DNA from: Minisyncoccota bacterium
Lineage (GTDB): Bacteria; Patescibacteriota; Minisyncoccia; Phycocordibacterales; Phycocordibacteraceae
Assembly (NCBI GenBank): GCA_041666305.1
Contig: JBAYHD010000002.1
Location: 64,684-128,683 of the forward strand
Direction of reading: 5' to 3'
Length of the DNA stretch: 64,000 nucleotides
Shown piece after piece: positions 4,627-62,203 of the stretch. The position numbers and the translations under genes were made by a program. The notes beneath the pieces were generated by a model. The model was not told where the DNA came from. It ran no database searches and saw only the letters and a program-made list of their open reading frames with translations. Numbering within the stretch: the stretch's first letter is position 1; the number at the start of each line of letters is the position of its first letter.

Positions 4627-5883
4627 TCATTTCCCGGTCGTCAAAAATTGGATGGCACGTGCGGTTTGAGGATCTTTTTTGGCGGTAGCATCCGCTTGGG
4701 TGAACGGCACGCTGATGTCCGGAGAGACTCCGTTACCCATGATCCAATGGCCGGCGGGAGTTATCCAGCGTGCAACCGTGATCTTGAGTGAACCGCCGGC
4801 AAGATCCACAAGCGTCTGTACTGAGCCTTTCCCGAACGATTTCGTGCCGATCAGTGTCGCGGCGTGCGCGTCCTGCAAAGCGCCGGCGAAGATCTCGGAT
4901 GCGGAAGCGGAACCACCGTCAATGAGCACGACGATCTTCGTCCCCGCGGGTACGTCATTGTATCCAAAGCTTGTATGCACATTGTTCGGTTCCTTTTCGC
5001 CGAAGTCCTCAGTCACGATAGTCGCACCCTTCGGAAGAAAATGGCTTGCGATGTCTACTGCCGCATCCAGATACCCGCCCGGATTGCTGCGTAGGTCAAT
5101 AATAAGTTTCTTTGAGCCGGATGCTACAAATCGGTTGAACGCCTGATCAAAAAGACTCGCAGAATTGGAGGTGAATTCGTAGAGCGCGATGTGGTACACA
5201 CCGCTGTCCTTATCAATGCCGTCATCCGTCTCCGGCACCTGGATGGTCTGTCGCACAATAGAAATATCCTGCGCTTTGCCACCGCGTACGATAGTGACGA
5301 TAACGGTCGAGCCAATGGGGCCGCGTATCTCATTCACGGCTTTATCGGTTGAAATGCCATCGGTGGATTTGCCGTCGATGGCGGCGATCTGATCGCCCGC
5401 TTTGATGCCAGCAGCTTCGGCAGGCGTTCCCTTCAGCGGTGCAATGACCGTGAGGATATTATCCTTTATATCAATTTCCATGCCGACGCCGGCGAAGCTT
5501 CCTGAAATGGTGTCTGCAAACGCTTTTGCTTCTTCAGGTGGGAAAAAGACGGTGTACGGATCGCCATACGAGGACGCCAGTCCGGAAATAGCGCCCAAGA
5601 CCCGTTCCCTGCTTGTGGGAAGCGTCGACGAGGCGTGCGTAATGACATAATTAGTATTCAGCGCATTCCATGCTTTCCAGAAATCCGCCAAGTCCACGTT
5701 CTGATTCGGCGTTGCATCAAGACCGTCTCCAATGAGCGGGATGTGCGTGACGATGGCCGCGGTGGTCGTGCCGCTACCGGCGACCGCAAGACCCGCGCCG
5801 AAAGCGATCGCTGCGACGAGCGCGAACGATACGCCACGTGCCGCGATGCTTCGACCGCGGTGATATGCTTCTCGAGCATCCAT
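4627..5883 (-). CDS. ctpA: C-terminal processing peptidase S41 with PDZ domain
   Basis: PDZ 'GVGMEI...GTPAEAAGIKAGDQIAAIDGKS', S41 'IIDLRSNPGGYL' and catalytic-region motifs. Confidence 0.85.
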   Translation of the reverse strand: MDAREAYHRGRSIAARGVSFALVAAIAFGAGLAVAGSGTTTAAIVTHIPLIGDGLDATPNQNVDLADFWKAWNALNTNYVITHASSTLPTSRERVLGAISGLASSYGDPYTVFFPPEEAKAFADTISGSFAGVGMEIDIKDNILTVIAPLKGTPAEAAGIKAGDQIAAIDGKSTDGISTDKAVNEIRGPIGSTVIVTIVRGGKAQDISIVRQTIQVPETDDGIDKDSGVYHIALYEFTSNSASLFDQAFNRFVASGSKKLIIDLRSNPGGYLDAAVDIASHFLPKGATIVTEDFGEKEPNNVHTSFGYNDVPAGTKIVVLIDGGSASASEIFAGALQDAHAATLIGTKSFGKGSVQTLVDLAGGSLKITVARWITPAGHWIMGNGVSPDISVPFTQADATAKKDPQTARAIQFLTTGK

Positions 5884-19883: not shown

Positions 19884-20651
19884 TTATCGCACAGATGCCT
19901 CAAGTTTTTGCTTTAATTCTTCTATTTCATCCTTCAATTCCACCATCTTCAATTCGCGCCCTATCATTAATTCGTTGGCCCGTTCGAGATCGGTGACTTT
20001 TTCCTGCAATTCTCGTTCCCTCCTCTTGCGTTCAGTAATGTCTCTTGACACGCCGATAACACCCGTGATCTCTCCGGTATCACTCCGTATCGGTGTCACT
20101 ATTTCAAAGCAATATTCATTCACCGACCCCTCTTTGGTGTGGTGTACTTCTATAGAAACAGTCTTTCCATTCAGCGCCGAGTTGAACGCTTCTTTAAATT
20201 CAGTCTGGCTTTCAGGAGCGAGAGCTTCAATGAAGTTATGCCGCTTGGCATCCTCAACATCCTTGTAATGATGCTCCGCGAGCCCTCCTTTGTTTATGAA
20301 CGAGAGATTTCCTTTTGTGTCAAAAAGTTTGATGCAGTCGGGCGAGTTTTGCGCTAGTGCGGTGAACAATACATTTTCAACGGACAACACTTTATTTCTT
20401 TCAGATTCTTCCATATTTTTCCGGACCAGCGGCTTGAAAGCGAAGTAGTATAAGATCGGATACTCAATGAGCGTTAGCAACAGTGCATCAATGAAATTTT
20501 CCAGTGGTTGTATCGGCGGCAGATAGAACTGTATCAAAAACATAATGCCGAACTCCACAACGAAAATACTGACCAAAAGGACTATCAATAATCTGACAGG
20601 ATCAGAACTGAAAGGGACTCGTATCTTTTTTTCTTTTGGCGCCTCGTCCAT
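19884..20651 (-). CDS. membrane-anchored PAS-domain sensor protein without an output domain
   Basis: two TM helices, PAS fold, C-terminal coiled coil. Confidence 0.65.
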   Translation of the reverse strand: MDEAPKEKKIRVPFSSDPVRLLIVLLVSIFVVEFGIMFLIQFYLPPIQPLENFIDALLLTLIEYPILYYFAFKPLVRKNMEESERNKVLSVENVLFTALAQNSPDCIKLFDTKGNLSFINKGGLAEHHYKDVEDAKRHNFIEALAPESQTEFKEAFNSALNGKTVSIEVHHTKEGSVNEYCFEIVTPIRSDTGEITGVIGVSRDITERKRRERELQEKVTDLERANELMIGRELKMVELKDEIEELKQKLEASVR

Positions 20652-20665
20652 AGTGCGGGAGGCGC

Positions 20666-21037
20666 TTACTTGGCCTGCAGAAGAACGTTCTTTATTTTCT
20701 CAATGATCTCGTTGATAGGATGCTCTGACTTCACATAATAGTCGGCGGCGCCGAGCTGAAGCGAGCGTTTGATGTCGCTGTCTTCACCCAAATTGGAGAC
20801 GACGATGACCGGTATCACTTTCAGCTCCTCATCCTTCTTCAGCGCCTCAAGAACCTCAAAGCCGTTTTTCTTAGGTAACAGAAGGTCAAGTACTATGACA
20901 TCGGGCTTGAAACTTGCGGTAGAAACGAGGGCAGCTTCGCCGTCGCTCGCTACCTGAACTTCATAGCCGGATTTTTCCAATTTCTCTTGAAAAACTTTTG
21001 CGAGCACCTCCTCGTCTTCAACAATTAGGACTTTCAT
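20666..21037 (-). CDS. single-domain response regulator (receiver only)
   Basis: 'KVLIVEDEE', 'VIVLDLLLP', 'VSNLG..SD'. Confidence 0.8.
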   Translation of the reverse strand: MKVLIVEDEEVLAKVFQEKLEKSGYEVQVASDGEAALVSTASFKPDVIVLDLLLPKKNGFEVLEALKKDEELKVIPVIVVSNLGEDSDIKRSLQLGAADYYVKSEHPINEIIEKIKNVLLQAK

Positions 21038-21093
21038 ACTATTGACTATAGCAATGAATGGATAGCGTGCGCAAGCGGACCGTGGGGGGTATT

Positions 21094-23388
21094 CTAGCCC
21101 TTAGCTTGCTTCCTGATCTTGGCCAATACGGCCTTTGATTTCTTGTTTTCAGCGTCTGTCGCTTTCCTCCTCGCCTGTTCCTTGGCCAGCTTTTCTTTCG
21201 CCGTCTTTCTTTGCTTTGCGAGCGCAATTTCTGCCCTGTGTTTTTCAGCGAAAACAGTGCGTTCGATCATCTTCCTTCTCGCGGAGAGCGCGGTCCGCGT
21301 CTGACTGTTCTTTTTTTGCACGGCGTGCTCTTTCGCCCGTTTCTTCCGTAGGGTCGACTGCAATTTTTTCTTTTCTGCTATGACGATTCTCATCCGCTCT
21401 TTTTCACGGCGTATCGTTTCCTCTTCTTTTTTCTTACGAGCTGCGAGAGCAGTCTCAACTTGTTTGGCTTTAGCCCGAATTGCTTTCTCTTTTTCTCGCT
21501 CCTTACGAAGAGCTGTTTGCACTCTCCTTTTCGCATCAGCAACCAGTTTCTTTGCGCGCGTCTTTTCCTTCAGGAGAGCTCTTGCCTTCTTTCGTTTTTC
21601 CGCAGCGAGTGCTTTTTCTGCTTTCTTTTTCTCATTCGCGACGACTTTATCGGCGGCTTTTTTGCTTATCAGTGATGCGCTTGGCGCAGAATGTGCTTCT
21701 TTTTTATTTTCAAAAAATTCCGTCAATCCGCGGATTGCGTCCGCGTGCTTTATGCGTTCAGTTGCCATTACCTCTTCCGCAAGTTTTCGTTCTTCAACAA
21801 CGACCTCTTCCCTTTTTTGTTTTTCTATCTGTAGGGCCTTCGCTTCTTTTCTTTTTTCTTTGGCGAGAGCTGCCTCAGCTTGTCTCTTCAAAAGCCTCAA
21901 TCCTTCTGACTGATCCTTCGCTGAAAGGACCGCGTCGGCAAGACGTTTCTTCTCGGCGATGACTGCCTCGAATTTATTTTTTTCTGCCATGAGCTTTGCT
22001 TGGAAACGCTGCTTCTCACGAGCCAGTGCTGTTTCCGCAGCTTTGGCGCGACGCAATTCATCTTTCAGAGCAGTTTCCGCTTGATCCTTCAAAAGAAAAG
22101 CCTCGTCCGCTTGTTTTTTCTCCGAGAAAGCTTGTTCAGCAAATTGTTCTTTCTTTACGACCGCGCTGGCTGTTTTCGATTTTTCCTCGACTATCTTTGC
22201 GTTAACGCGTTTCTTTTCCCTCACCAGCGCTGCTTCGGCAGTCTCGGCGCGCTTCTTTTCTTCTGCGAGCTCTGCTTCCTTTATTTTTTCTTCGGCGAGC
22301 ACGGCGTCTGTGCGTTTCTTTTCCTTCGCGAGCGCCGCCTCAACCTCGCTCTTTAGGCGAAGCGCTTCCTCGGTTTGTTTCTTTGCCACGAGCACCTCCT
22401 CCGTCGTTTGCTTTTGTGCCGCTGTGGCCACGTCCGCCTCAGCGTATTGCCTCTTGATATCGGAAATAGCAGCTTTGGCCTTACTCTTTTCTTCAGCCAG
22501 TGCGACTTCCGCGTCCTCTGCACGCTTTTTTGTGTCCACAAGCGCTGCTTCGGCCTCGCTTTTCATGCGAAGAGCTTCTTCCGCTTGCTTTTTTGCTGCA
22601 AGGAACTCTTCTTCTGCACTGATTTTTGATGCAACAGTCTCCTCTTGAGATGGCTTCTTTTTAAGGTCGGAAATTATGGATTCAGACCGGTTCTTCTCCT
22701 CGGCCAACGCCGCTTCCGCGGCTTCTACATGCTTTCGTTCTAGAGCGAGTTCGTCCTCCGCTTGCTGTTTTTCCTTTTGGAGCTCGGCTTCCTTCTTTTC
22801 TTCTTCAGCAAGAGCATTTTCCGCTCGTTTCTTTTCCTCTTCAAGCGCCGCTTCTGCTTCGCTTTTCAGACGAAGAACTTCTTCCGCTTGCTTCGCCGCC
22901 GCGGAAACCTCTTCCGTTTGCTGTTTTTCTGTTGTCGCAGCCTCAGTTCCGACGGTTTCTTCCAACGGAACGGGAGTCGGCTCTTCTTTCGTTTCTGCGA
23001 CGGTAGTCGATATATCGATGCCTTTTTCCTCAAAATACGATTTAATCTTTGCGATCACTTCCTCGAACGGATGATCTGCTTTTACAAAATAATCCTTGGC
23101 ACCAAGCGACAACGCTGTCTTAATATCCTCGTCGCCTTGAAGATTCGACGTCACAAAAACGGGTATGTCCTGCAATGTCGGGCTTTCCTTCATTGCCTTC
23201 AACACGCCGAAGCCGTCCAGACGGGGCATCACGAGGTCCAATATCACCAGATCGATCTCGTGTTGCCGCAGTATGTTCAGCGCCTCCTCGCCGTCACCTG
23301 CCGTGAGAACATCCCACATTTGCGCCTCCAGCTTGCCCTGTTCTATGTGACGCAGGCTTTCATCATCTTCGGCGACGAGTATTCTCAT
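21094..23388 (-). CDS. response-regulator receiver domain fused to a ~640-aa K/E/A-rich repetitive coiled-coil tail (FrzS-like architecture)
   Basis: N-terminal REC ('ILVAEDDESL', 'LVILDLVMP'); remainder is a low-complexity Ala/Glu/Lys heptad-like repeat ('AKKQAEEALRMKSEAEAAL..KKRAEDAE.ALAEEK'). Confidence 0.75.
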   Translation of the reverse strand: MRILVAEDDESLRHIEQGKLEAQMWDVLTAGDGEEALNILRQHEIDLVILDLVMPRLDGFGVLKAMKESPTLQDIPVFVTSNLQGDEDIKTALSLGAKDYFVKADHPFEEVIAKIKSYFEEKGIDISTTVAETKEEPTPVPLEETVGTEAATTEKQQTEEVSAAAKQAEEVLRLKSEAEAALEEEKKRAENALAEEEKKEAELQKEKQQAEDELALERKHVEAAEAALAEEKNRSESIISDLKKKPSQEETVASKISAEEEFLAAKKQAEEALRMKSEAEAALVDTKKRAEDAEVALAEEKSKAKAAISDIKRQYAEADVATAAQKQTTEEVLVAKKQTEEALRLKSEVEAALAKEKKRTDAVLAEEKIKEAELAEEKKRAETAEAALVREKKRVNAKIVEEKSKTASAVVKKEQFAEQAFSEKKQADEAFLLKDQAETALKDELRRAKAAETALAREKQRFQAKLMAEKNKFEAVIAEKKRLADAVLSAKDQSEGLRLLKRQAEAALAKEKRKEAKALQIEKQKREEVVVEERKLAEEVMATERIKHADAIRGLTEFFENKKEAHSAPSASLISKKAADKVVANEKKKAEKALAAEKRKKARALLKEKTRAKKLVADAKRRVQTALRKEREKEKAIRAKAKQVETALAARKKKEEETIRREKERMRIVIAEKKKLQSTLRKKRAKEHAVQKKNSQTRTALSARRKMIERTVFAEKHRAEIALAKQRKTAKEKLAKEQARRKATDAENKKSKAVLAKIRKQAKG

Positions 23389-23412
23389 AAGGTATGCGTT
23401 CGATCGGGGTTG

Positions 23413-24876
23413 CTATGACTCTATCTCTTCCATGTTTTCGACTATATATTGCTTGTTCTTCGTTATACTGTCTGAAATGCGCGTGAGTACGATCTTCATT
23501 TCGTGCACTACTTGAGCGGTCAGGCCCGTATCATCCATTCGCGCCAATAGGTTGCCGACCTCTTTCTGAATGGCATCAAACGAGGTACGCACATCCCGTT
23601 GTGCGATAACAAGACGCCGCAATCGCTGTTCCTTTTGTTTCCGTCCTAAGTACCAGCCAAGCGCGCCGCTCGCAATGATCGCAAAAATGAGGATGAGGAT
23701 GAATGATGATTTGGTGACGCCGATGCCTCCGATCATGATGAGCGGGACTTCCGTAATATCCAACGTTACGCGGTTCTCGGTCGTATTCCCCGCCTTGTCT
23801 ACCGCTTGCACAACGAGACTATGCTTTCCCGCTTGCTGAGGAGAAAGCGTGTACTGCGTAAGCGTCGTCGTCGTCGCCAGATTGTTGTCGATCAGCACTT
23901 TGTAATTCAGTATGCCGGACGGTTGATCATTCGTCACAAAACGGATCGTCGGAGCGACATTCGCGGTCGTCAGACCATCGGGCGACGTAACCGCAAAGCC
24001 CAAGGGCGGAGTGGTGTCGATACCGATGCGATAATGCGCGGTCGAGCTCCACCCGAGAGAATTCTTGAATCGCACGTGCAGATACCATATGCCGTCGGAA
24101 AGAGGACTAAAGGTTTTATTGTTGAACAATCCTTCCGAGACCGTCGGATCAAATGCCGGCTGTTGGTTCACTGCCGTTGCGACATCGGTCACATCTCTGG
24201 GCAGGTCCCACTGCACGATGAATTTAGATACATCCGCATACCACGCTGTTGGATCGGGGTAGAGCGGAACGGTGAGAGTCGTTTTTGTCGGAAGCACCTT
24301 CGCTTCCACCACAGGACGCACGATCTGCTGAGGAGGCTTGATGACCGTAGGAGTTTGTGAGGTGGAGCTGGTGAGCTGCAGGCCGTTCATCGCTTTGAGC
24401 ACATTGGTTCCGCTGCCGTCGGAGGCCGTGACCGCACCATCGGTGAAGATGATGCTGACCGGACCCGCGCCGAGCACCTTGAATGCGATGCGAACCACTT
24501 CGAGCGCTTTGCCGGATATGCCGCTCTGGCTTCCGCCGATGAACGTAACCTGGCCGCTGTCATTTGAGAACGAGGGCCCCTGGAGCCAGAAATCAAACGC
24601 AGATGTGCTTTTGTCGATACCGGTCACTTGCACGGTCCCCTTCGGAAACGAGATAGTTCCCTGCGCGGCATTGACACCGACATCCGTGCTGTCGATCTTT
24701 ACGTCCACATTGAATGTGCTCCCCGCCGCAAACGTTTCTTTGTCAGTGGTGAGATTGTACGACGCAGCGAGCGCGTGGCTCGGTGCGGACGCGATGAACG
24801 CGATTGCGAGTAAGCTTCCGAGCACGAGCGTGCGTTTCGTGTATGTCATAGGTGAATTATACATCGACATTCCCAA
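23413..24876 (-). CDS. secreted/membrane-anchored surface protein with cohesin-like beta-sandwich domain (tentative), Ig-like region, C-terminal TM anchor
   Basis: signal peptide, alternating-hydrophobic beta-strand pattern 'FNVDVKIDS..GVNAAQGTISF', TM 'FILILIFAIIASGALGWYL' near the C-terminus. Confidence 0.55.
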   Translation of the reverse strand: MGMSMYNSPMTYTKRTLVLGSLLAIAFIASAPSHALAASYNLTTDKETFAAGSTFNVDVKIDSTDVGVNAAQGTISFPKGTVQVTGIDKSTSAFDFWLQGPSFSNDSGQVTFIGGSQSGISGKALEVVRIAFKVLGAGPVSIIFTDGAVTASDGSGTNVLKAMNGLQLTSSTSQTPTVIKPPQQIVRPVVEAKVLPTKTTLTVPLYPDPTAWYADVSKFIVQWDLPRDVTDVATAVNQQPAFDPTVSEGLFNNKTFSPLSDGIWYLHVRFKNSLGWSSTAHYRIGIDTTPPLGFAVTSPDGLTTANVAPTIRFVTNDQPSGILNYKVLIDNNLATTTTLTQYTLSPQQAGKHSLVVQAVDKAGNTTENRVTLDITEVPLIMIGGIGVTKSSFILILIFAIIASGALGWYLGRKQKEQRLRRLVIAQRDVRTSFDAIQKEVGNLLARMDDTGLTAQVVHEMKIVLTRISDSITKNKQYIVENMEEIES

Positions 24877-24878
24877 CG

Positions 24879-27800
24879 TTATTGTTTGAGAGTGCGGACA
24901 AAGATGCTCAAGTCGGTGACATCAACTTTTCCGTCGCCGTTGAGGTCGTCAAGTATGCGAACGGCCGTATCGGACGAAGAGAAACGCGAGAGGAAAATAC
25001 TCCAGTCCTGCACATTGATCACGCCGTCCTGATTGAAGTCGGTTTGCGGGGTGAGCAGTGTCGTCACATTGAACACCTTTTGGGGAGTATAATCGCTCTT
25101 CGCTCCAATGGGAGAAATTTGGCGTACACGGACGGTATGACTGCCGAGCGCGAGCGTACCGGTCGGGAGGAGCATTTTGTACGAACCGTCAGATTCGACG
25201 GGCGTTTCTGTAGGAATGGAAGTGCCATCAATTTCAGCTTCGACAGAATACCCGGGAATCGCCATTCCTACGAAACCAACCACATCATTTTGGCGGACGG
25301 TCGGATGCACGAGGCCCAAGGTCGGCGAAAGGAGACCGGCATCGAGATGGATGACCGGATTATTGCCTGAGTAACCCGCGTTGAACACTACGGTCTGGGT
25401 CGTGCGGCCGAGCGAGTCAATTCCAACAACGCCGTACGAACCGAGTCCGACCTGAATGTTTTTCAGCAACATCGAGAAGGCGCCGTTCGCTGCAGCGGTC
25501 GTCTGCGCCTGCAGTATCGACCCTTTCGGCGATACAGAGAGAACTTGTATTTTCGCGCCCGGAAATGCCAATCCCGAAAGTTGCTCGCCAATAACAATCG
25601 TTATTCCGGGAGCAACGGCGGTGGCGCTTACGCCCGACGACGGTGCGACAGGAGTTGCCGAGAATGTGATCTCCTGCGTCGAAGACACGTCGAGGTTCGT
25701 CCCTTCACTGTCAGACAGCGAGAGAGTCACTGTTTCGGGAGAAGTGTCCTGTAAGGACGCCGTTCCAACGCCGTTAACCATGGTCACGAGTCCGGCGCCG
25801 GTCGCCGAGCCAGTCACCAGGAGCGTCACGCCGGATTGGATCGTGGTGTCCACATTGCCGGAATTATCTTGCGCTTCGATGGTCACTGTTGCCGGCGTTC
25901 CGACCTGAACGGTCGAAGGTGGCAGAATGACGAAACGAGTGGCGACGATTGGTATCGTGCTCACCGTCACTGAATCAACAGCATCGAGGATGCCGGTGGA
26001 ACCATTCGGCGCGCCCGAACTGTCAGAAGCAGTGACCAGCCAGGTGCCGGGCTCTGCGTCGTAATACCAGAAATCGCCTGACGAATTGCCGTCATTGATA
26101 GTAGCGAAGGCTGTCGGTGCTCCGCCGACTGCCGCTGAATAAAATGCGGTTGTCGTCCCCGTCGAAGATGAACACAGGTACGCGAGCGTCACGCCCGCGG
26201 TAGTGGGATTATTGAACTGATCTTCGCGGGTCACGGTGTATCCGAGGCGCGTGCTGACTGTCATATTGCCGGGATCATTCAAGAGGAATTTCGCGACAGC
26301 GGCCGGCTGAATAGTAATCGCATCACTCGCATCGGCTACGCCCGCGCTATCCGGCGCGCTCGAGCTATCAGACACCGTTATGTACCAGTCGCCCGCTTTC
26401 TCATCGTATGCCCAGAAGCTGATTGCTGAAACGCCATCCGGAATGACAATGGATGTAATTGCGCTGCCACCGCTCGCGGCGTCATAGAATTTTTTGTTGA
26501 CGCCATCGGAGGTGCTATAGAGATACGCCGTTGTTGCGCCGGCCGTGACCAAATTTCCGTACTGATCTTTACGACTGACGGTGTATCCGATCCTCGCTCC
26601 CGCCGCCACGTCTCCGGGATTATTAAGCGCGAATTGCGCGACCGCTCCGGCAGCGAAGGTCACTCCTTGAGTCGAAGACACGTTAAGATTTGTCGTTTGA
26701 CTGTCAACAAGTGACAGCGTGACGACTTCAGGAACCGTATCGGATATCGGGATCGTTCCGACACCGCTTGCAATGGTCACGAGCCCTCCGCCAGTCGCCG
26801 TGCCGCTTGTGTTGAGCGTCACTCCGATATTTTGAGTGGTGTCCACATTGCCGGAATTATCTTGTGCCTGCACCGTAACGGTAATCGGCGCGTCAACGGT
26901 ACCACTCGTCGGAGGAAGTATCACAATGCGTGTCGCGACAATAGGAGCCGCGGTAACCCCCACCGAGTCGGTAGCGTCAGCGACGCCGCTCAATCCATCT
27001 GGGACGGATGGATTATCAGAAGCGGTCACGGTCCATGTCCCGAGATTTGAATCGGCATACCACACTTGGGCAGATGACTGGCCGTCCGGAATGGTGATTG
27101 AAGTGATCACCGTGCCGTTCGTATCAGCGTCATAGAACGCAGGAGTATCGACTCCGGTCGAATTGCTATACATATATACCGTTGTAGCGCCGTCAGTAAC
27201 TAGGTTATTGAATTGGTCCTTTCGAGTCACGGTGTAGCCAAGGCGCGTATCGGCAGTCATGTCGCCCGGATTATTGAGCGAGAAAGAGGCAACCGAACCT
27301 GCAGTCACCACAAGAGAGTCGGTGGCATCGTTGATGCCGGTGTTGCCGTCCGGTGCAGATATATTATCGGAAGCGGTCACAGTCCATGTTCCCGGCAACT
27401 CGTCGTAATACCAGACATCCGCCGTTGATTGACCGTCACTTATGGTGATTGAAGTTATTTCAGTGCCGTTTATCGCGGCATTATAAAATTTCTTATTCAC
27501 ACCGGTCGATGAACTGTAGAGATACACGACATTTGAACCGAGAGAACTCACATTGCCGTATTGGTCTTTGCGCGTAATCGTGTATGCCGCACGCTCGCCC
27601 GCAGCCAATGTTGCTGGGTGATTGAGCGTGAACTGTGAGACCGTTCCGCCGGCAAACACAACTGACTGCGTCGACGAAACATCCAAGCCGGTACTCTGTG
27701 AGTCAGTCAAAGAGAGATCCACGGTCTCGGCAACCGTATCTGAAATGGATAGTGTTCCAACACCGTTGATGATATCTACCAATCCTCCGCCGGTAGCGGA

Positions 27801-30326
27801 ACCGGTCGTGTCCAAGGTCACGTCATTTTGATAATTCGTGTCCACACTGTTGTCGGGCTTTTGTGCCTGCACAGTGACCGTGATAGAAGCATCCACCGTG
27901 CCATTCGTCGGCGGTAGTATGACGAATTTCGTAGCGACCGGGTTTACGACCACAGAATCGGTCGCGTCAGCAATGCCGGTATTACCGTCAGCATTCGGAG
28001 TGGCATCAGACGCCGTAATGGTGTAGGTCCCCGGCGTCTCATCGTAGTACCAGAAGTTGGCTGTCGAGTAGCCGGGAGCAATATCGATGTAGGTAATCTC
28101 CGAGCCGGCGAGAGAATCATCGTAGAATTTTTTCGTACCGCTTGAGGAGTTGGAATAGAGATAGACTCTGTTTGTTCCCGTACCAACCGCGTTCCCTGAA
28201 AAATCGTTTCTACTCACGGTATACCCGAGCCGGGTTCGGGCGTACATATCTCCCGGATTATTGAGCGAAAAGGACGTAACGACTCCACCGGTCACGGTAA
28301 AGGCGGCAGAGGTACCGGTCTTCGTCCCTCCGTTGTCGGTTGCGGTGATGGTCTTGCCGGAACCAGCTGTTGTCACCGTCACACTTTCCGTGCGTTCACC
28401 TGATACGAAGGCGCCGGACTCCGTGGGCGCGATGGTGCCTGCGGTTGTAGAAAGATCAACAGTGCCTGAATATCCGGTCACGGTGTTGTTGTTCACGTCC
28501 TGCGCCATAATCGTTATGTTGAACGGGGTACCGGCTGCTTGGGTGGTGATTGCCGCGAAAGAGAAATGATCAAGAGCACCGGGATTCACGGTGAACGTCG
28601 AGGAGGTGCCGGTCTTCGTTCCTCCATTATCGGTAGCGGTGATGGTTTGAAGAGTGCCGGCCTGCGTAACGGTCACGCTTTCGGTACGCACACCGGAGCT
28701 GAAGGCACTCGATTGCGTCGGCGCGATGGTGCCTGCAGTCGTCGAGAGATCAACGGTGCCCGAATAGCTGGCCAGTGTGTTGTTATTCACATCCTGCGCT
28801 GTGATGGTGATGTTGAAAGCGGTACCGGCGGTCTGTGTTCCGATAGCGGCGATGGCAAAGTGATCAAGGGTGCCGGCAGTAACGGTGAATGACTGATCCA
28901 CATCTGCAGCGGCGTTGTAGTTGCTGTTGCCGGATTGCGAGGCGCGAATGGTGCAAGTGCCCGTAGAGACAAGGTGGACGGTTGCGGTACTCACAGTACA
29001 GACGCCGGTCGTTTGCGACGAGAAGGTGACCGTGAGGCCGGATGAGGCTGTTGCGCTGACCGCGAAGTCGGGATCACTGAGCGTCTTGTCCGAAAGTGCA
29101 CCAAACGTGATGGTCTGATTCGCCGTATTGATGACGAAGTTCCCTGCCGAGGCGCCCGTCAAACTTTTATAACTCGTGGTGTCGGTCGGCGTGAAGTTGG
29201 CGGTGACGGCATAGGTGCCGACGTTGGTCTGCGTTGCAACGCCACCCGTAAGGATATTGCTTGCCGTACCCGGTACAGAACCCGAGACTGTGGCAGCTTG
29301 TCCGGAGCCATTGTAGGTGACAGGAGAATTCGTCACCGAAAGAGTCGGTGTCGCGCGAGTATCGTTCGTAACACTCAACATGCCAGTCGTTGCTGCGAAA
29401 TAGGTGTTGTTTTGATGAGTTGCCGTGGAGCTTGTTGAACCCCATGTGCCATTGATGCGGCCGAGACCGCCGAGCGTCAGATTTGCTACCGTCAGTGTAA
29501 GCCCGGCCCCGACACTTGCAGTCACCGAGCCCGTCGGTGCAATGCTCATCGTGCCGCTAACCGAAGTTCCAGTTACCATCGTCGCCGCACCGCTTCCAGA
29601 GAGCGTGAGATTCACATAACTGGCGGGCTCGATCGCTTGCGCTGAACCGTTATAATTAATTGTGTTTCCGGCTCCGGTTGCGGTGAGCGTGACATTAGCA
29701 GATGGCGTAAATGCCCCATTGATATTGAGCACAGAACTCGCACCTTGCACCCATATGGCAGTGCCGCTCGTTCGTGCGTAATTGCCATTCAGAGTAACGG
29801 TCCCATTGTTTGTAACTGTTTTCCCCGGAGAATTAATATTGTTGTTGATCGTTATATTTGCGGTGGAAGAAAAGGAGAAATTTTGGGTTACCAATATACT
29901 CGTATCTATCACTCCACTCCCATCGATAGTTTTTCCAGCGGAGTTCGATTTAAGAATCCCCGATGTCCCAGTAATTGATCCGTTGACCACAACGTTTCCG
30001 TTTTCCGTAAGCGTAAACGCACCGGCAAAGTTCAAAATAGCGCCAGAGTTTACGGTAAGACCGGCATTTGTTTTATTCGCACTGATAGTCACATTATTTC
30101 CGCCGGTCGTCGCAATAATGACACTGTCGGCATTTGCGGGAACCACGCCACCAATCCATGTTGACGCCGTAGCCCAATTGCCTCCGGTCGCAGTACTTGT
30201 CCTTACTGCAGCAAATGCGGTGCTTGCACCACCGAGCGTCATCAGCATCGTTAATGCGAATACAAAACTATACCTGCCGACTCTTGCGAACAAGGAGAAG
30301 AATGCGAGGCGGTGGTTGGTAGTCAT
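24879..30326 (-). CDS. giant surface adhesin-like protein with beta-helix N-terminus, ~6 tandem ~100-aa Ig-like modules and C-terminal dockerin
   Basis: signal peptide; Thr/Gly/Asn-rich beta-helix repeats; repeated module '...VYLYS.S.G..K.FYD....G..ITSI.I.DG.S.A..WYYD..PGTW.VTASD'; C-terminal 'DFNQDGVINVQD...DLNGDGKVDVTD' duplicated Ca-binding dockerin segments. Confidence 0.8.
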   Translation of the reverse strand: MTTNHRLAFFSLFARVGRYSFVFALTMLMTLGGASTAFAAVRTSTATGGNWATASTWIGGVVPANADSVIIATTGGNNVTISANKTNAGLTVNSGAILNFAGAFTLTENGNVVVNGSITGTSGILKSNSAGKTIDGSGVIDTSILVTQNFSFSSTANITINNNINSPGKTVTNNGTVTLNGNYARTSGTAIWVQGASSVLNINGAFTPSANVTLTATGAGNTINYNGSAQAIEPASYVNLTLSGSGAATMVTGTSVSGTMSIAPTGSVTASVGAGLTLTVANLTLGGLGRINGTWGSTSSTATHQNNTYFAATTGMLSVTNDTRATPTLSVTNSPVTYNGSGQAATVSGSVPGTASNILTGGVATQTNVGTYAVTANFTPTDTTSYKSLTGASAGNFVINTANQTITFGALSDKTLSDPDFAVSATASSGLTVTFSSQTTGVCTVSTATVHLVSTGTCTIRASQSGNSNYNAAADVDQSFTVTAGTLDHFAIAAIGTQTAGTAFNITITAQDVNNNTLASYSGTVDLSTTAGTIAPTQSSAFSSGVRTESVTVTQAGTLQTITATDNGGTKTGTSSTFTVNPGALDHFSFAAITTQAAGTPFNITIMAQDVNNNTVTGYSGTVDLSTTAGTIAPTESGAFVSGERTESVTVTTAGSGKTITATDNGGTKTGTSAAFTVTGGVVTSFSLNNPGDMYARTRLGYTVSRNDFSGNAVGTGTNRVYLYSNSSSGTKKFYDDSLAGSEITYIDIAPGYSTANFWYYDETPGTYTITASDATPNADGNTGIADATDSVVVNPVATKFVILPPTNGTVDASITVTVQAQKPDNSVDTNYQNDVTLDTTGSATGGGLVDIINGVGTLSISDTVAETVDLSLTDSQSTGLDVSSTQSVVFAGGTVSQFTLNHPATLAAGERAAYTITRKDQYGNVSSLGSNVVYLYSSSTGVNKKFYNAAINGTEITSITISDGQSTADVWYYDELPGTWTVTASDNISAPDGNTGINDATDSLVVTAGSVASFSLNNPGDMTADTRLGYTVTRKDQFNNLVTDGATTVYMYSNSTGVDTPAFYDADTNGTVITSITIPDGQSSAQVWYADSNLGTWTVTASDNPSVPDGLSGVADATDSVGVTAAPIVATRIVILPPTSGTVDAPITVTVQAQDNSGNVDTTQNIGVTLNTSGTATGGGLVTIASGVGTIPISDTVPEVVTLSLVDSQTTNLNVSSTQGVTFAAGAVAQFALNNPGDVAAGARIGYTVSRKDQYGNLVTAGATTAYLYSTSDGVNKKFYDAASGGSAITSIVIPDGVSAISFWAYDEKAGDWYITVSDSSSAPDSAGVADASDAITIQPAAVAKFLLNDPGNMTVSTRLGYTVTREDQFNNPTTAGVTLAYLCSSSTGTTTAFYSAAVGGAPTAFATINDGNSSGDFWYYDAEPGTWLVTASDSSGAPNGSTGILDAVDSVTVSTIPIVATRFVILPPSTVQVGTPATVTIEAQDNSGNVDTTIQSGVTLLVTGSATGAGLVTMVNGVGTASLQDTSPETVTLSLSDSEGTNLDVSSTQEITFSATPVAPSSGVSATAVAPGITIVIGEQLSGLAFPGAKIQVLSVSPKGSILQAQTTAAANGAFSMLLKNIQVGLGSYGVVGIDSLGRTTQTVVFNAGYSGNNPVIHLDAGLLSPTLGLVHPTVRQNDVVGFVGMAIPGYSVEAEIDGTSIPTETPVESDGSYKMLLPTGTLALGSHTVRVRQISPIGAKSDYTPQKVFNVTTLLTPQTDFNQDGVINVQDWSIFLSRFSSSDTAVRILDDLNGDGKVDVTDLSIFVRTLKQ

Positions 30327-30476
30327 GAGGGTGTAAAAATAATGGTATCTGCATATAATATAGAGCAATTCAGCCATTGTTTTTGCCATTTCGTAAAATA
30401 TGTGTGGATAGTAAGGATGGAATGCGCATGCTCATGTATGGCATGACGGGCGAAAGTCTGGTATAAAAATAGGTAC

Positions 30477-30549
30477 GGCCTCATCGTCTAACGGCTAGGA
30501 CAGATCCCTCTCACGGATCAAATCGGGGTTCGATTCCCCGTGAGGTCAC
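30477..30549 (+). tRNA. tRNA-Glu (anticodon CUC)
   Basis: cloverleaf folded by hand: acceptor GGCCUCA/UGAGGUC, D arm GUC..GAC, anticodon stem GAUCC/GGAUC with loop CUCUCAC, T arm CGGGG-UUCGAUU-CCCCG, discriminator A. Confidence 0.85.
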
Positions 30550-30556
30550 CCGCAAG

Positions 30557-52199: not shown

Positions 52200-52373
52200 G
52201 TAAGCGTTTCTTGCACGCTTTCCCGCGTTCGCCTCGCTCGAAAACAGAAGCCGTGGGTGCCCCGCTTGTAAGCGTTGCTTGCACGCTTTCCCGCGTTCGC
52301 CTCGCTCGAAAACAGAAGCCGTGGGTGCCCCGCTTGTAAGCGTTGCTTGCACGCTTTCCCGCGTTCGCCTCGG
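52200..52373. repeat. 68-bp tandem direct repeat, 2.6 copies (1 mismatch)
   Basis: unit gtaagcgttgcttgcacgctttcccgcgttcgcctcgctcgaaaacagaagccgtgggtgccccgctt. Confidence 0.9.
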
Positions 52374-52380
52374 ATAAAAA

Positions 52381-52411
52381 GAAACCGCCCTCAGAAGGGC
52401 GTTTCTTTTTG
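52381..52411. terminator. bidirectional rho-independent terminator downstream of tRNA-Asn
   Basis: gaaaccgccct-caga-agggcgtttc flanked by A-run and T-run. Confidence 0.7.
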
Positions 52412-52419
52412 ATCCTCGG

Positions 52420-52714
52420 CTCCGCGGGTAGGATTCGAACCTACGACCAACTCGTTACATCTTGTCCGCTATTACTAACGGGATGGACTATATCATCACC
52501 GGTTCTCGGTGCGAGGCGCTTCGACCTCTCGGTCTACTCCCTTGCGGGATAGTCTCTGAACCTTTCTCGAAACATTTCGGGACTTGGCTGCTGATTGCCC
52601 GCGTCTTTCTCGTTTGGGTTTCCAGCAATTCACCTCGTTCTTCATTCCCGAATTCCTTCGGGAAGCTGCGTTTCTTGGCCACAGCGAGCCGCTCTACCAC
52701 TGAGCTACCGCGGA
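52420..52714 (-). tRNA. tRNA-Asn (anticodon GUU) interrupted by a group I intron in the anticodon loop
   Basis: exons 52681..52714 and 52420..52457 join to UCCGCGGUAGCUCAGUGGUAGAGCGGCUCGCUGU|UAACGAGUUGGUCGUAGGUUCGAAUCCUACCCGCGGAG, a complete cloverleaf that parallels E. coli tRNA-Asn and has discriminator G. Confidence 0.8.
52458..52680 (-). ncRNA. group I intron (223 nt, ORF-less)
   Basis: conserved elements in order: P 'aauugcuggaaa', Q 'aaucagcag', R 'guucagagacua', S 'auauagucc'; 5' exon ends in U pairing with an internal guide GCAGC (P1); terminal omega-G. Confidence 0.8.
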
Positions 52715-52766: not shown

Positions 52767-53147
52767 GTGGAAAACAACATTAACACTAAGTGTTATACTG
52801 TGAGCGTGGAGAAAATTTGCAAGATTCATGGATTAACAAAGTTCTTCCCTAGAACAGAAGGGTGGTATCGCTGTGGAAAGTGCGCCTCGGTAGCCGTCAT
52901 ACAAAATCGCAGACGTAAAAAAGAAAAATTGGTCGAATTATTTGGTGGGAAGTGTTCAATCTGTGGATATAGGAGGTATGTGGGGTCATTAGATTTTCAT
53001 CATATGGATCCGAAAAACAAATCCTTTGCTCTCAGTGTCAAAGGTCTGTGCTATTCATGGGGTTCAATTCTCAAGGAAGCTGAAAAGTGTGTTTTAGTTT
53101 GTAAGAATTGTCATGCAGAAATTGAAGGCGGCATTACAAAGTTATAG
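52767..53147 (+). CDS. free-standing HNH endonuclease (AT-rich, likely homing-endonuclease-like)
   Basis: Zn-ribbon 'CGKC...CSICG', 'LDFHHMDPKNK', 'CKNCH' HNH motif; ~38% GC against a ~57% background. Confidence 0.7.
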   Translation: MENNINTKCYTVSVEKICKIHGLTKFFPRTEGWYRCGKCASVAVIQNRRRKKEKLVELFGGKCSICGYRRYVGSLDFHHMDPKNKSFALSVKGLCYSWGSILKEAEKCVLVCKNCHAEIEGGITKL

Positions 53148-61626: not shown

Positions 61627-61937
61627 GTTGCTGTCATGTATACTAGCAGAAGTGGGAACCTGAGTATCCCCATTGGCTTTTACCGGCCTGTGCGCTTCGT
61701 AAGAAATGCATAACTCCTTCTGCCTTCGGCGCTCGTCAGAGAAGTGAATACACGATGATCGCCCACGGACCGCTGGCTCACGCTGGCGGTTTCGCGTTTG
61801 AGATGCGCTTGACAACAAACAGCGGACCTGCTATTCTGTGCCTATCAACCAGCGGCTTAATCCAGAGAAGTGGGATCGAGCTTCTATCTTTTGCTTCTGA
61901 TTTGATACCAATTAGTCACACAATATCTATCTGCAGT

Positions 61938-62147
61938 ATGCAAAATGGTACCGTAATCAAAAAGAACGAGAAGGGCTTCGGCTTCATCAAAGTCGACGGA
62001 GCACCAGAAGGTTCTAAGGACCTTTTCTTCCATTCCAACGAGCTCAAGAACATTTCGTTCGACGAGCTCCAGGAGGGAGCAAAGGTTACGTTTGAGATCG
62101 GCGACAGCCCGAAAGGCCCGAACGCTCTCAACGTCAGCACTATCTAA
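61938..62147 (+). CDS. cspA: cold-shock protein
   Basis: '[28 protein letters not shown]' RNP1/RNP2 cold-shock domain; long 5' leader. Confidence 0.85.
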
Positions 62148-62163
62148 GCAATTAGATAAGGCA

Positions 62164-62203
62164 AAGAAATCGCCCCGCTAAAAGCGGGGCGATTTCTTTT
62201 GCT
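62164..62203. terminator. bidirectional rho-independent terminator
   Basis: gaaatcgccccgc-taaaa-gcggggcgatttc then TTTTG. Confidence 0.75.

Follow-up and report, generated by a model that had tools for sequence, protein, structure and literature searches.

A tRNA-Asn(GUU) gene split inside its anticodon by an IA-like group I intron, next to an HNH endonuclease gene, in DNA of a probable Patescibacteria bacterium

Can a tRNA gene that is interrupted inside its anticodon still serve the cell that carries it, and what is it that interrupts the gene? These questions are raised by a locus on the minus strand of a 64-kb stretch of bacterial DNA, referred to here as the window, in which the two halves of a tRNA-Asn(GUU) gene lie 223 nucleotides (nt) apart. 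We conclude, with a probability of about 0.9, that the locus holds a functional tRNA-Asn(GUU) gene, most likely from a bacterium of the Patescibacteria (candidate phyla radiation, CPR), which is split between U35 and U36 by a self-splicing, IA-type group I intron of 223 nt that has no open reading frame (ORF). The grounds for this are sequence and fold, covariation, the conservation of the exons, and homology to an intron that has been proven to splice. The window copy probably also splices in vivo, and the gene is probably the only tRNA-Asn gene of the cell. The parts of the split gene are as follows.

52681..52714, minus strand: 5′ exon of tRNA-Asn(GUU), 34 nt, tRNA positions 1-35 (ARAGORN on the joined exons)
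52458..52680, minus strand: group I intron, 223 nt, without an ORF, subgroup IA-like by its modelled fold, first nucleotide G at 52680 and omega G at 52458 (RF00028, RNAfold and covariation)
52420..52457, minus strand: 3′ exon of tRNA-Asn, 38 nt, from U36 A37 A38 to the discriminator G at 52420 (sequence and ARAGORN)

The 5′ exon closes with GCUCG CUGU, the last four bases being C32 U33 G34 U35, and the 3′ exon opens with UAA CGAGU; the terminal CCA is not encoded, and CCG comes next. When the two exons are joined (52714-52681 plus 52457-52420), ARAGORN folds them into a canonical tRNA-Asn(GUU) with the loop CUGUUAA, a 7-bp acceptor stem and D, anticodon and T arms, in a call of 74 nt that includes two 3′ bases past the discriminator. 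The spliced body also fits tRNA-Asn in its G73 discriminator and its U1-A72 pair. A sequence-only reading of the locus had described two minus-strand halves, 223 nt apart, which join into a canonical tRNA-Asn with this loop and a discriminator G, and had placed the insertion after the second anticodon base (GU|U). All of this was borne out, the intron being 52680-52458 and the insertion point lying between anticodon positions 35 and 36 (CUGU|UAA). The split gene is missed by ARAGORN with default settings, whose sole tRNA call in the window is a tRNA-Glu at 30477-30550. Run with the -i option, the program calls a tRNA-Thr(AGU), which we rejected: its boundary falls within the P9 hairpin (…TCCATCCCG|TTAGT…) and not after the terminal G at 52458, and the resulting cloverleaf is distorted and 94 nt long.

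The identity of the intervening sequence was addressed with the Rfam group I model RF00028 (Intron_gpI), the check that the earlier reading had proposed, which matches 52732-52465 over its full length (model positions 1-253) with 78.5 bits against a gathering score of 50 (E=3e-18) and finds no other group I match in the 64 kb. The conserved elements P, Q, R and S are found between 52630 and 52485 on the minus strand in the canonical order that had been claimed for them. Helices were positioned by hand, with each pair verified by script, and the resulting architecture is given here from 5′ to 3′.

52665..52669, minus strand: internal guide GCAGC, intron nt 12-16, pairing with exon G31-U35 (52685-52681) to form P1
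52645..52664, minus strand: P2 hairpin, 8 bp, with a GGAA loop
52588..52637, minus strand: 5′ strand of P3 (52637-52631), then P4-P5-P5′-P4′, spanning the P and Q elements; P3 is CGAGGUG / CGCCUCG
52630-52619, minus strand: P element, AAUUGCUGGAAA
52596-52588, minus strand: Q element, AAUCAGCAG; P4, from the P and Q elements, is UGCUGG / UCAGCA
52550..52588, minus strand: P6/P6a, then R with the 5′ strand of P7 (G-bulge A-GACUA)
52561-52550, minus strand: R element, GUUCAGAGACUA
52523..52549, minus strand: two hairpins between P7 and P3′, P7.1 UCCC-GCAA-GGGA (52549-52538) and P7.2 GACC-GAGA-GGUC (52534-52523)
52466..52518, minus strand: 3′ strand of P3, P8 hairpin, J8/7, S with the 3′ strand of P7 (UAGUCC), and P9 hairpin with a GUAA loop
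52493-52485, minus strand: S element, AUAUAGUCC; P7, in R and S, is the pseudoknot G-(A)-GACUA / UAGUCC

Unconstrained RNAfold recovers P1, P2, P3, P4, P5, P7.1, P7.2, P8 and P9. P1 is formed by the exon sequence GCUGU and the guide GCAGC, which shows no variation in a nine-sequence seed alignment, and it contains a U35·G12 wobble at the 5′ splice site; the terminal omega G (52458) directly precedes the UAA of the 3′ exon. The prediction of a 5′ exon ending in a U that wobble-pairs with this guide, and of an intron ending in G, was thus accurate. A naive search for the guide with the best exon pairing was confounded by the Q element GCAGCCAAG, and the structural alignment was used instead. Extra helices, P7.1/P7.2 or P7.1/P7.1a, between the 5′ strand of P7 and the 3′ strand of P3 are the hallmark of subgroup IA in the Michel-Westhof classification. 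Because two hairpins lie between P7 and P3′ here, the modelled fold makes the window intron IA-like, unlike the IC3 introns of the classical bacterial tRNA cases. The structural account of a group I intron in the anticodon of tRNA-Asn(GUU) therefore stood in every detail tested, the features that it had not noticed being the IA-like P7.1/P7.2 pair and an HNH gene next door, to which we return below.

With this architecture, transcription would give a precursor of about 295 nt, in which the intron would fold into its P3-P8 and P4-P6 domains with the P7 pseudoknot as the guanosine-binding site. The guide GCAGC and exon G31-U35 would form P1, setting the U35·G wobble at the 5′ splice site, which free guanosine would then attack. 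The terminal G (52458) would enter the same pocket, the freed 3′-OH of U35 would attack the 3′ splice site, and …CUGU would be ligated to UAA…, restoring the loop CUGUUAA. CCA would be added afterwards, as it is not encoded. Guanosine-dependent self-splicing has been demonstrated for a homologue that is 70% identical (Nakagawa et al., 2026, PMC13011429), and by analogy it is expected of the window intron.

Homologous introns provide comparative evidence for this reading. We scanned genomes, taking one genome per species, for the pattern of an S element, a gap, G|UAA and a tRNA-Asn 3′ half, and obtained at least 120 loci, among which joining of the flanking halves revealed at least 62 further species with a tRNA-Asn(GUU) gene split exactly at CUGU|UAA. 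Going by record title, hosts of the same split gene include many lineages of the Patescibacteria/CPR (Saccharibacteria, Parcubacteria/Paceibacterota, Falkowbacteria and Collierbacteria), as well as Omnitrophota, Nitrospira, cyanobacteria, Planctomycetes, Elusimicrobia, Margulisbacteria, Methylomirabilota and Limnocylindria. Among the matches listed, the closest is in a Paceibacterota metagenome-assembled genome (MAG; locus L045), with identical exons, an intron that is also 223 nt long and 89% identity over 302 nt, and the second closest is in a Saccharibacteria MAG (locus L040), with identical exons and 76% identity. That the exons are 100% identical to those of both relatives while the introns have diverged by 11-24% fits selection on the mature tRNA, and hence on splicing.

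For covariation we built a covariance model, R1, from nine sequences, omitting P1 since MAFFT misaligned the P1 region; the counts for this helix (76% paired) are unreliable for introns with long P1 loops. R1 finds 56 matches in the window and 99 loci, and it matches the window once, with a score of 242 bits that is inflated by the presence of the window in the seed. Across the 56 introns, 90.7% of cells hold a pair, compared with 69.0 ± 0.5% in shuffles and 38-45% when the partners are slid by 1-3 columns, and compensatory changes occur in 44 of the 60 base pairs. The covariation score is 0.494 against 0.147, and none of 500 shuffles reached the observed value on any measure. All seven modelled pairs of P2 show changes on both sides, and compensatory pairs are found in P3 (4/7), P4 (5/6), P5 (2/3), P6 (3/3), P6a (4/4), P8 (4/5) and P9 (6/6), as well as in P7.1 (4/4 where the helix is present); P7.2 aligned less well, with 73% paired. 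P7 is invariant in the 56 sequences; the guide GCAG is another invariant element.

How unusual is such an intron? The sequence-only reading had considered both host and site out of the ordinary, and with regard to the classical literature this holds: the hosts in a group I intron database are tRNA-Leu, -fMet, -Ile2 and -Arg only, with insertion at 34/35 in tRNA-Leu(UAA) of cyanobacteria, at 33/34 in tRNA-fMet and at 36/37 in tRNA-Ile(CAU) of Azoarcus and in tRNA-Arg(CCU), all of subgroup IC3 (Williams, 2020, bioRxiv 10.1101/2020.01.27.920355). The positions for fMet, Leu and Arg are given likewise by Nakagawa et al. (2026, PMC13011429). Like these introns, that of the window is small, would by analogy be self-splicing, lies in the anticodon loop and forms P1 from loop nucleotides with a U·G pair, and like most of them it is without an ORF; it differs in its host tRNA, in its site (35/36) and in its subgroup (IA-like with P7.1/P7.2 and R = UCAGAGACUA). 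As a statement on what is now published, however, the claim of an unusual host and site has been overtaken by the same two studies. Williams (2020), with the tFind software, raised the number of tRNA settings from the four classical ones to 21, and one of the seeds, 'Pam37.Asn.4Ug' of the class 'Asn.4Ug', is a tRNA-Asn intron that follows the fourth loop nucleotide and has U-1 and omega G. It has in common with the window the tRNA, the loop position, U-1, the terminal G, an extra helix after P7 and the core motifs AAUUC..GGAAA, CAGAGACUA and GAGAUAGUCC; Pam37 carries a single long extra helix and a P2 extension, where the window has two short hairpins instead.

The second study, by Nakagawa, Amikura, Omae and Suzuki (2026, mSystems, PMC13011429; preprint July 2025, 10.1101/2025.07.03.662931), describes 35/36 introns of tRNA-Asn from 15 complete genomes of Patescibacteria, with 15 such genes in 95 complete genomes. 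The intron of GCA_016700035.1 self-splices in vitro precisely at 35/36, as established by sequencing of the product, and an omega-G-to-C mutation blocks the reaction. Subgroup-specific covariance models assigned 25 of 28 introns at 35/36 to IA, 19 of the 28 being from Patescibacteria, and 81% of all bacterial tRNA introns belong to IC. Most introns are without endonuclease genes, although HNH enzymes are encoded by four of those in tRNA-Asn; going by a text search, the article does not appear to mention endonuclease genes beside the split tRNA. The window intron shares with those of Nakagawa et al. the tRNA-Asn(GUU) host, the CUGU|UAA site, U-1, the terminal G and the IA-type structure with extra hairpins after P7, and its 223 nt are similar to their overall mean length of 257 nt. 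Its identity to five published members is 63-77%, with 70% to the spliced GCA_016700035.1 intron and 77% to that of the Paceibacteria genome GCA_016699245.1, which has the same P7.1/P7.2 arrangement. CCA is unencoded in the window as in the Paceibacteria genes of their table, and their genes and the window gene alike are missed by default tRNA finders. The window contig is not one of the 95 complete genomes, and the exon string is absent from those parts of their tables that were available to us. A keyword literature search on tRNA-Asn as a host of group I introns returned only papers on organelles. The class, the site, the subgroup, the host phylum and the activity are thus already published, and the window locus adds one more example; together with the at least 62 further species-level examples it enlarges a known class. 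That an essential tRNA gene is missed by default finders bears on the annotation and the completeness estimates of CPR genomes, a point already made by Nakagawa et al.

Some of the homologous loci show peculiarities of their own. L029 has a second R1 match (4669-4899, plus strand, 62 bits), some 1.5 kb away from the split tRNA-Asn and with a 3′ flank other than UAA; presumably it is another group I intron in a different gene. Bacterial tRNA-Asn has a U1-A72 pair, and G1-C72 is archaeal-like. Two loci, L008 (JAGVXA010000008.1, 1884-2215) and L016 (JAFCDH010000004.1, 894-1390), have a 35/36 intron in a tRNA-Asn with G1-C72 and come from bins labelled 'Candidatus Pacearchaeota archaeon'. A similar G1-C72 tRNA-Asn adjoins an HNH gene in L138. 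For L008 and L016, either a DPANN archaeon genuinely carries a group I intron or the sequences were mis-binned; their flanking ORFs, which by eye are FtsZ-like, MnmA-like and GatA-like, do not settle the matter, and one such archaeal case was explained by mis-binning in Williams (2020).

The other feature of the locus is a gene that runs divergently from the split tRNA gene.

52767..53147, plus strand: free-standing HNH endonuclease gene, 126 aa, 52 nt from the 5′ end of the tRNA gene

Its predicted product matches HNH-endonuclease families of PHROG with E=4e-22 and 3e-21, and in a 14-sequence alignment it keeps all of the family-invariant CxxC, HH and NCH residues. It has no Pfam match at E≤0.001; PF01844 gives 13.9 bits where its gathering score is 21.4, and intron-encoded relatives reach 14-20.5 bits. 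Among solved structures, the best match (E=1e-4) covers 54 residues close to the C-terminus of a maturase/reverse transcriptase chain from a group II intron. Over residues 43-126 the protein shares 34-56% identity with ORFs inside long tRNA-Asn introns; these ORFs are the counterparts of the HNH genes that Nakagawa et al. noted and were found at 18 loci among the genome-scan matches listed, in introns of 423-590 nt, always on the tRNA strand and in the P1 loop. Three further loci (L041, L045 and L113) combine an ORF-less intron with an HNH gene that lies beyond the tRNA gene, at a distance of 46-198 nt. The HNH copies of these three nest among the intron-encoded ones in a rough neighbour-joining tree; the window protein, which has an extra N-terminal zinc-ribbon-like segment, forms a long branch outside the intron-encoded group. 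We considered L202 and L045 as near-isogenic alleles with and without the intron and rejected this pairing, the shared part being the HNH gene alone, at 81% identity.

A metagenome scan with the HNH family alignment gave at least 575 relatives, and neighbourhoods were taken from the 80 closest to the window protein (L124-L203). Here 70 of the 80 directly adjoin an uninterrupted tRNA-Asn(GUU) gene: in 57 the tRNA is on the same strand and begins no more than about 90 nt from the HNH stop, in seven the two are convergent, and in six the tRNA is upstream of the HNH 5′ end, two of these six distances being unreliable. Another four lie inside split tRNA-Asn genes, and in two cases the contig stops directly behind the ORF. 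Such varied orientations argue against a role in co-transcription and for a connection with the tRNA-Asn gene in the DNA itself. Two long metagenomic examples have a high-GC, chromosomal context with dnaG next door. Across its settings the family is found beside intron-less tRNA-Asn in Actinobacteria-like soil bacteria and inside the P1 loop in CPR, Omnitrophota and Nitrospira, and phage relatives lie within tRNA gene clusters, in the crAss-like phage DAC15, in Cronobacter phage CR3, where the gene directly follows tRNA-Asn, and in Salmonella phage Sl26. From these arrangements the family appears to be a putative tRNA-Asn-linked homing endonuclease family, a large one, whose genes nearly always sit beside the tRNA gene, beside a split gene or in its intron. 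A keyword literature search found no published description of this HNH/tRNA-Asn linkage, and one HNH family tied to tRNA-Asn genes with or without an intron is the less expected result of this work. If the link does reflect DNA targeting, it would provide a testable system for how group I introns in bacteria gain mobility and lose it.

Three of the metagenomic HNH-adjacent tRNA-Asn(GUU) genes (L128, L134 and L157) are 85-88 nt long, with an apparent extra stem-loop in the variable region that is unusual for tRNA-Asn. That of L157 sits in an array of ten tRNA genes, including one with a CUA anticodon, which looks phage-like.

Several observations weigh against a functional split gene. P1 is only 5 bp long, and a search for P10 gave no convincing pairing with the 3′ exon in the window and no consistent one across the family. 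P1 takes up just the last base pair of the anticodon stem, and we therefore infer that this stem helps to hold the exons together, so that their alignment must lean on it or on tertiary contacts. No sigma-70-like promoter was found upstream of the tRNA gene with a tool that is blind to other types, ARAGORN found no second, intact tRNA-Asn in a view restricted to 64 kb of the genome, and the covariation alignment, being fitted to the model, is somewhat biased towards the structure, though the margin is large. The short P1, the missing P10 and the limited view of the genome are also what could be said for the intron being a decayed, splicing-dead relic, in which case the split gene would be a pseudogene and a tRNA-Asn gene elsewhere would be in use. 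We regard this as quite improbable, given that the elements of the catalytic core, the U·G wobble, the terminal G and the G-binding pair of P7 are all intact and that the exons have stayed identical to those of two relatives through the divergence of the introns. Still less credible, to the point of being negligible, is that the gene is a tRNA-Thr(UGU) with an intron at 33/34. Both ARAGORN and tFind return exactly this for seven of the 15 tRNA-Asn introns in Table 1 of Nakagawa et al. (PMC13011429), and the -i call on the window is likewise a tRNA-Thr. Some of the introns of Nakagawa et al. are indeed ambiguous in this respect; that of the window is not, and the 33/34 boundary is excluded by what it would entail, an intron ending in …AAGA, without a terminal G, and a U33 that faces A and not G in P1. 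The distorted cloverleaf of the -i call, the match of the spliced body to tRNA-Asn, with exons identical to other Asn exons, and the sequenced product of the tested homologue, from which the intron had been excised at 35/36 (PMC13011429), point the same way.

A further proposal would add to the functional tRNA-Asn gene with its self-splicing intron and not replace it. The intron is not mobile by itself, because it has no endonuclease gene within it, and the adjacent HNH gene may supply the mobility function in trans. ORF-less intron and free-standing HNH gene would then be one mobile unit, by collaborative or trans homing: the HNH enzyme would cut the intron-less tRNA-Asn gene of related cells, the intron would shield its own chromosome by splitting the target, and repair would copy both the intron and the HNH gene into the cut allele. 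The proximity of the two genes, the retention of the invariant catalytic and zinc residues, the homologues in the P1 loop of longer tRNA-Asn introns (the 18 in the genome scan and the four in metagenomes), the shared layout of L041, L045 and L113, the abutting of tRNA-Asn(GUU) in several orientations by 70 of the 80 closest metagenomic relatives, and the phage relatives in tRNA clusters all speak for it. Precedents are found in phages, where the free-standing T4 mobE, adjacent to the intron, promotes trans-homing of I-TevIII (PMC2790892) and where the cyanophage enzyme F-CphI is known (PMC6083498). In outline, such systems resemble the window in having an HNH-type gene beside a gene with an endonuclease-less group I intron; they differ in that the window combines a bacterial chromosome with a tRNA gene and not a phage with a protein gene, that its HNH protein is a predicted endonuclease, and that most relatives of that protein neighbour intron-less tRNA-Asn genes. 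This last point counts against the proposal, since an enzyme targeting the anticodon loop should cut these uninterrupted genes, and so do the roughly 40 other ORF-less loci among the matches listed that have no HNH gene within 8 kb, the differing N-terminal zinc-ribbon region and long branch of the window protein, and its Pfam score below the gathering threshold. On balance we consider the mobile unit possible but rather doubtful. It is with similar reserve that we suggest that, if the family targets tRNA-Asn, these loci might be natural chromosomal snapshots of a free-standing endonuclease and a passive intron first cooperating and then fusing into a mobile intron.

Downstream of the split gene lies one further feature.

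52376..52401, minus strand: intrinsic-terminator-like hairpin CGCCCU-UCUG-AGGGCG (52401-52386) followed by a T run, 18 nt past the 3′ end of the tRNA

Just beyond it lies a 68-bp tandem repeat (52200-52372, 2.5 copies, 99% identical), an array that is upstream of, and overlaps the start of, a glutaredoxin-like ORF and has a terminator-like hairpin in each unit. A metagenome contig (L121, ENA ERZ27249449 k141_1313312, 104 kb) has aligned segments that are 99.8-100% identical to the window and one copy fewer of this repeat. The genes flanking the locus are ordinary chromosomal ones, for MreB, MurA, peptide deformylase (Def), Fmt, a hibernation-factor-like protein (HPF), a glutaredoxin-like protein (Grx) and PEBP. 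For MreB, MurA, Def, Fmt, HPF and Grx there are counterparts, with identities of 39-74%, in the complete Patescibacteria genome of L053, where they are in the same order near its split tRNA-Asn. The nearest relatives of the contig appear to be genomes of Patescibacteria, and on sequence grounds the host would be a member of the Patescibacteria, probably Paceibacteria-like. A stretch at 61844-62200 that is 84% identical to the Saccharibacteria MAG of L040, a value well above background, was considered as an RNA element and rejected, as it corresponds to an ordinary gene for a CspA-like cold-shock protein at about 61950-62147 on the plus strand. Elsewhere in the window, positions 20001-24000 have an AT skew of -0.27 to -0.29 and a GC skew of about -0.11 to -0.13, unlike the rest; this stretch covers the minus-strand ORFs 21094-23388 and 23413-24876 and adjoins an ORF of 1836 aa at 24879-30389.

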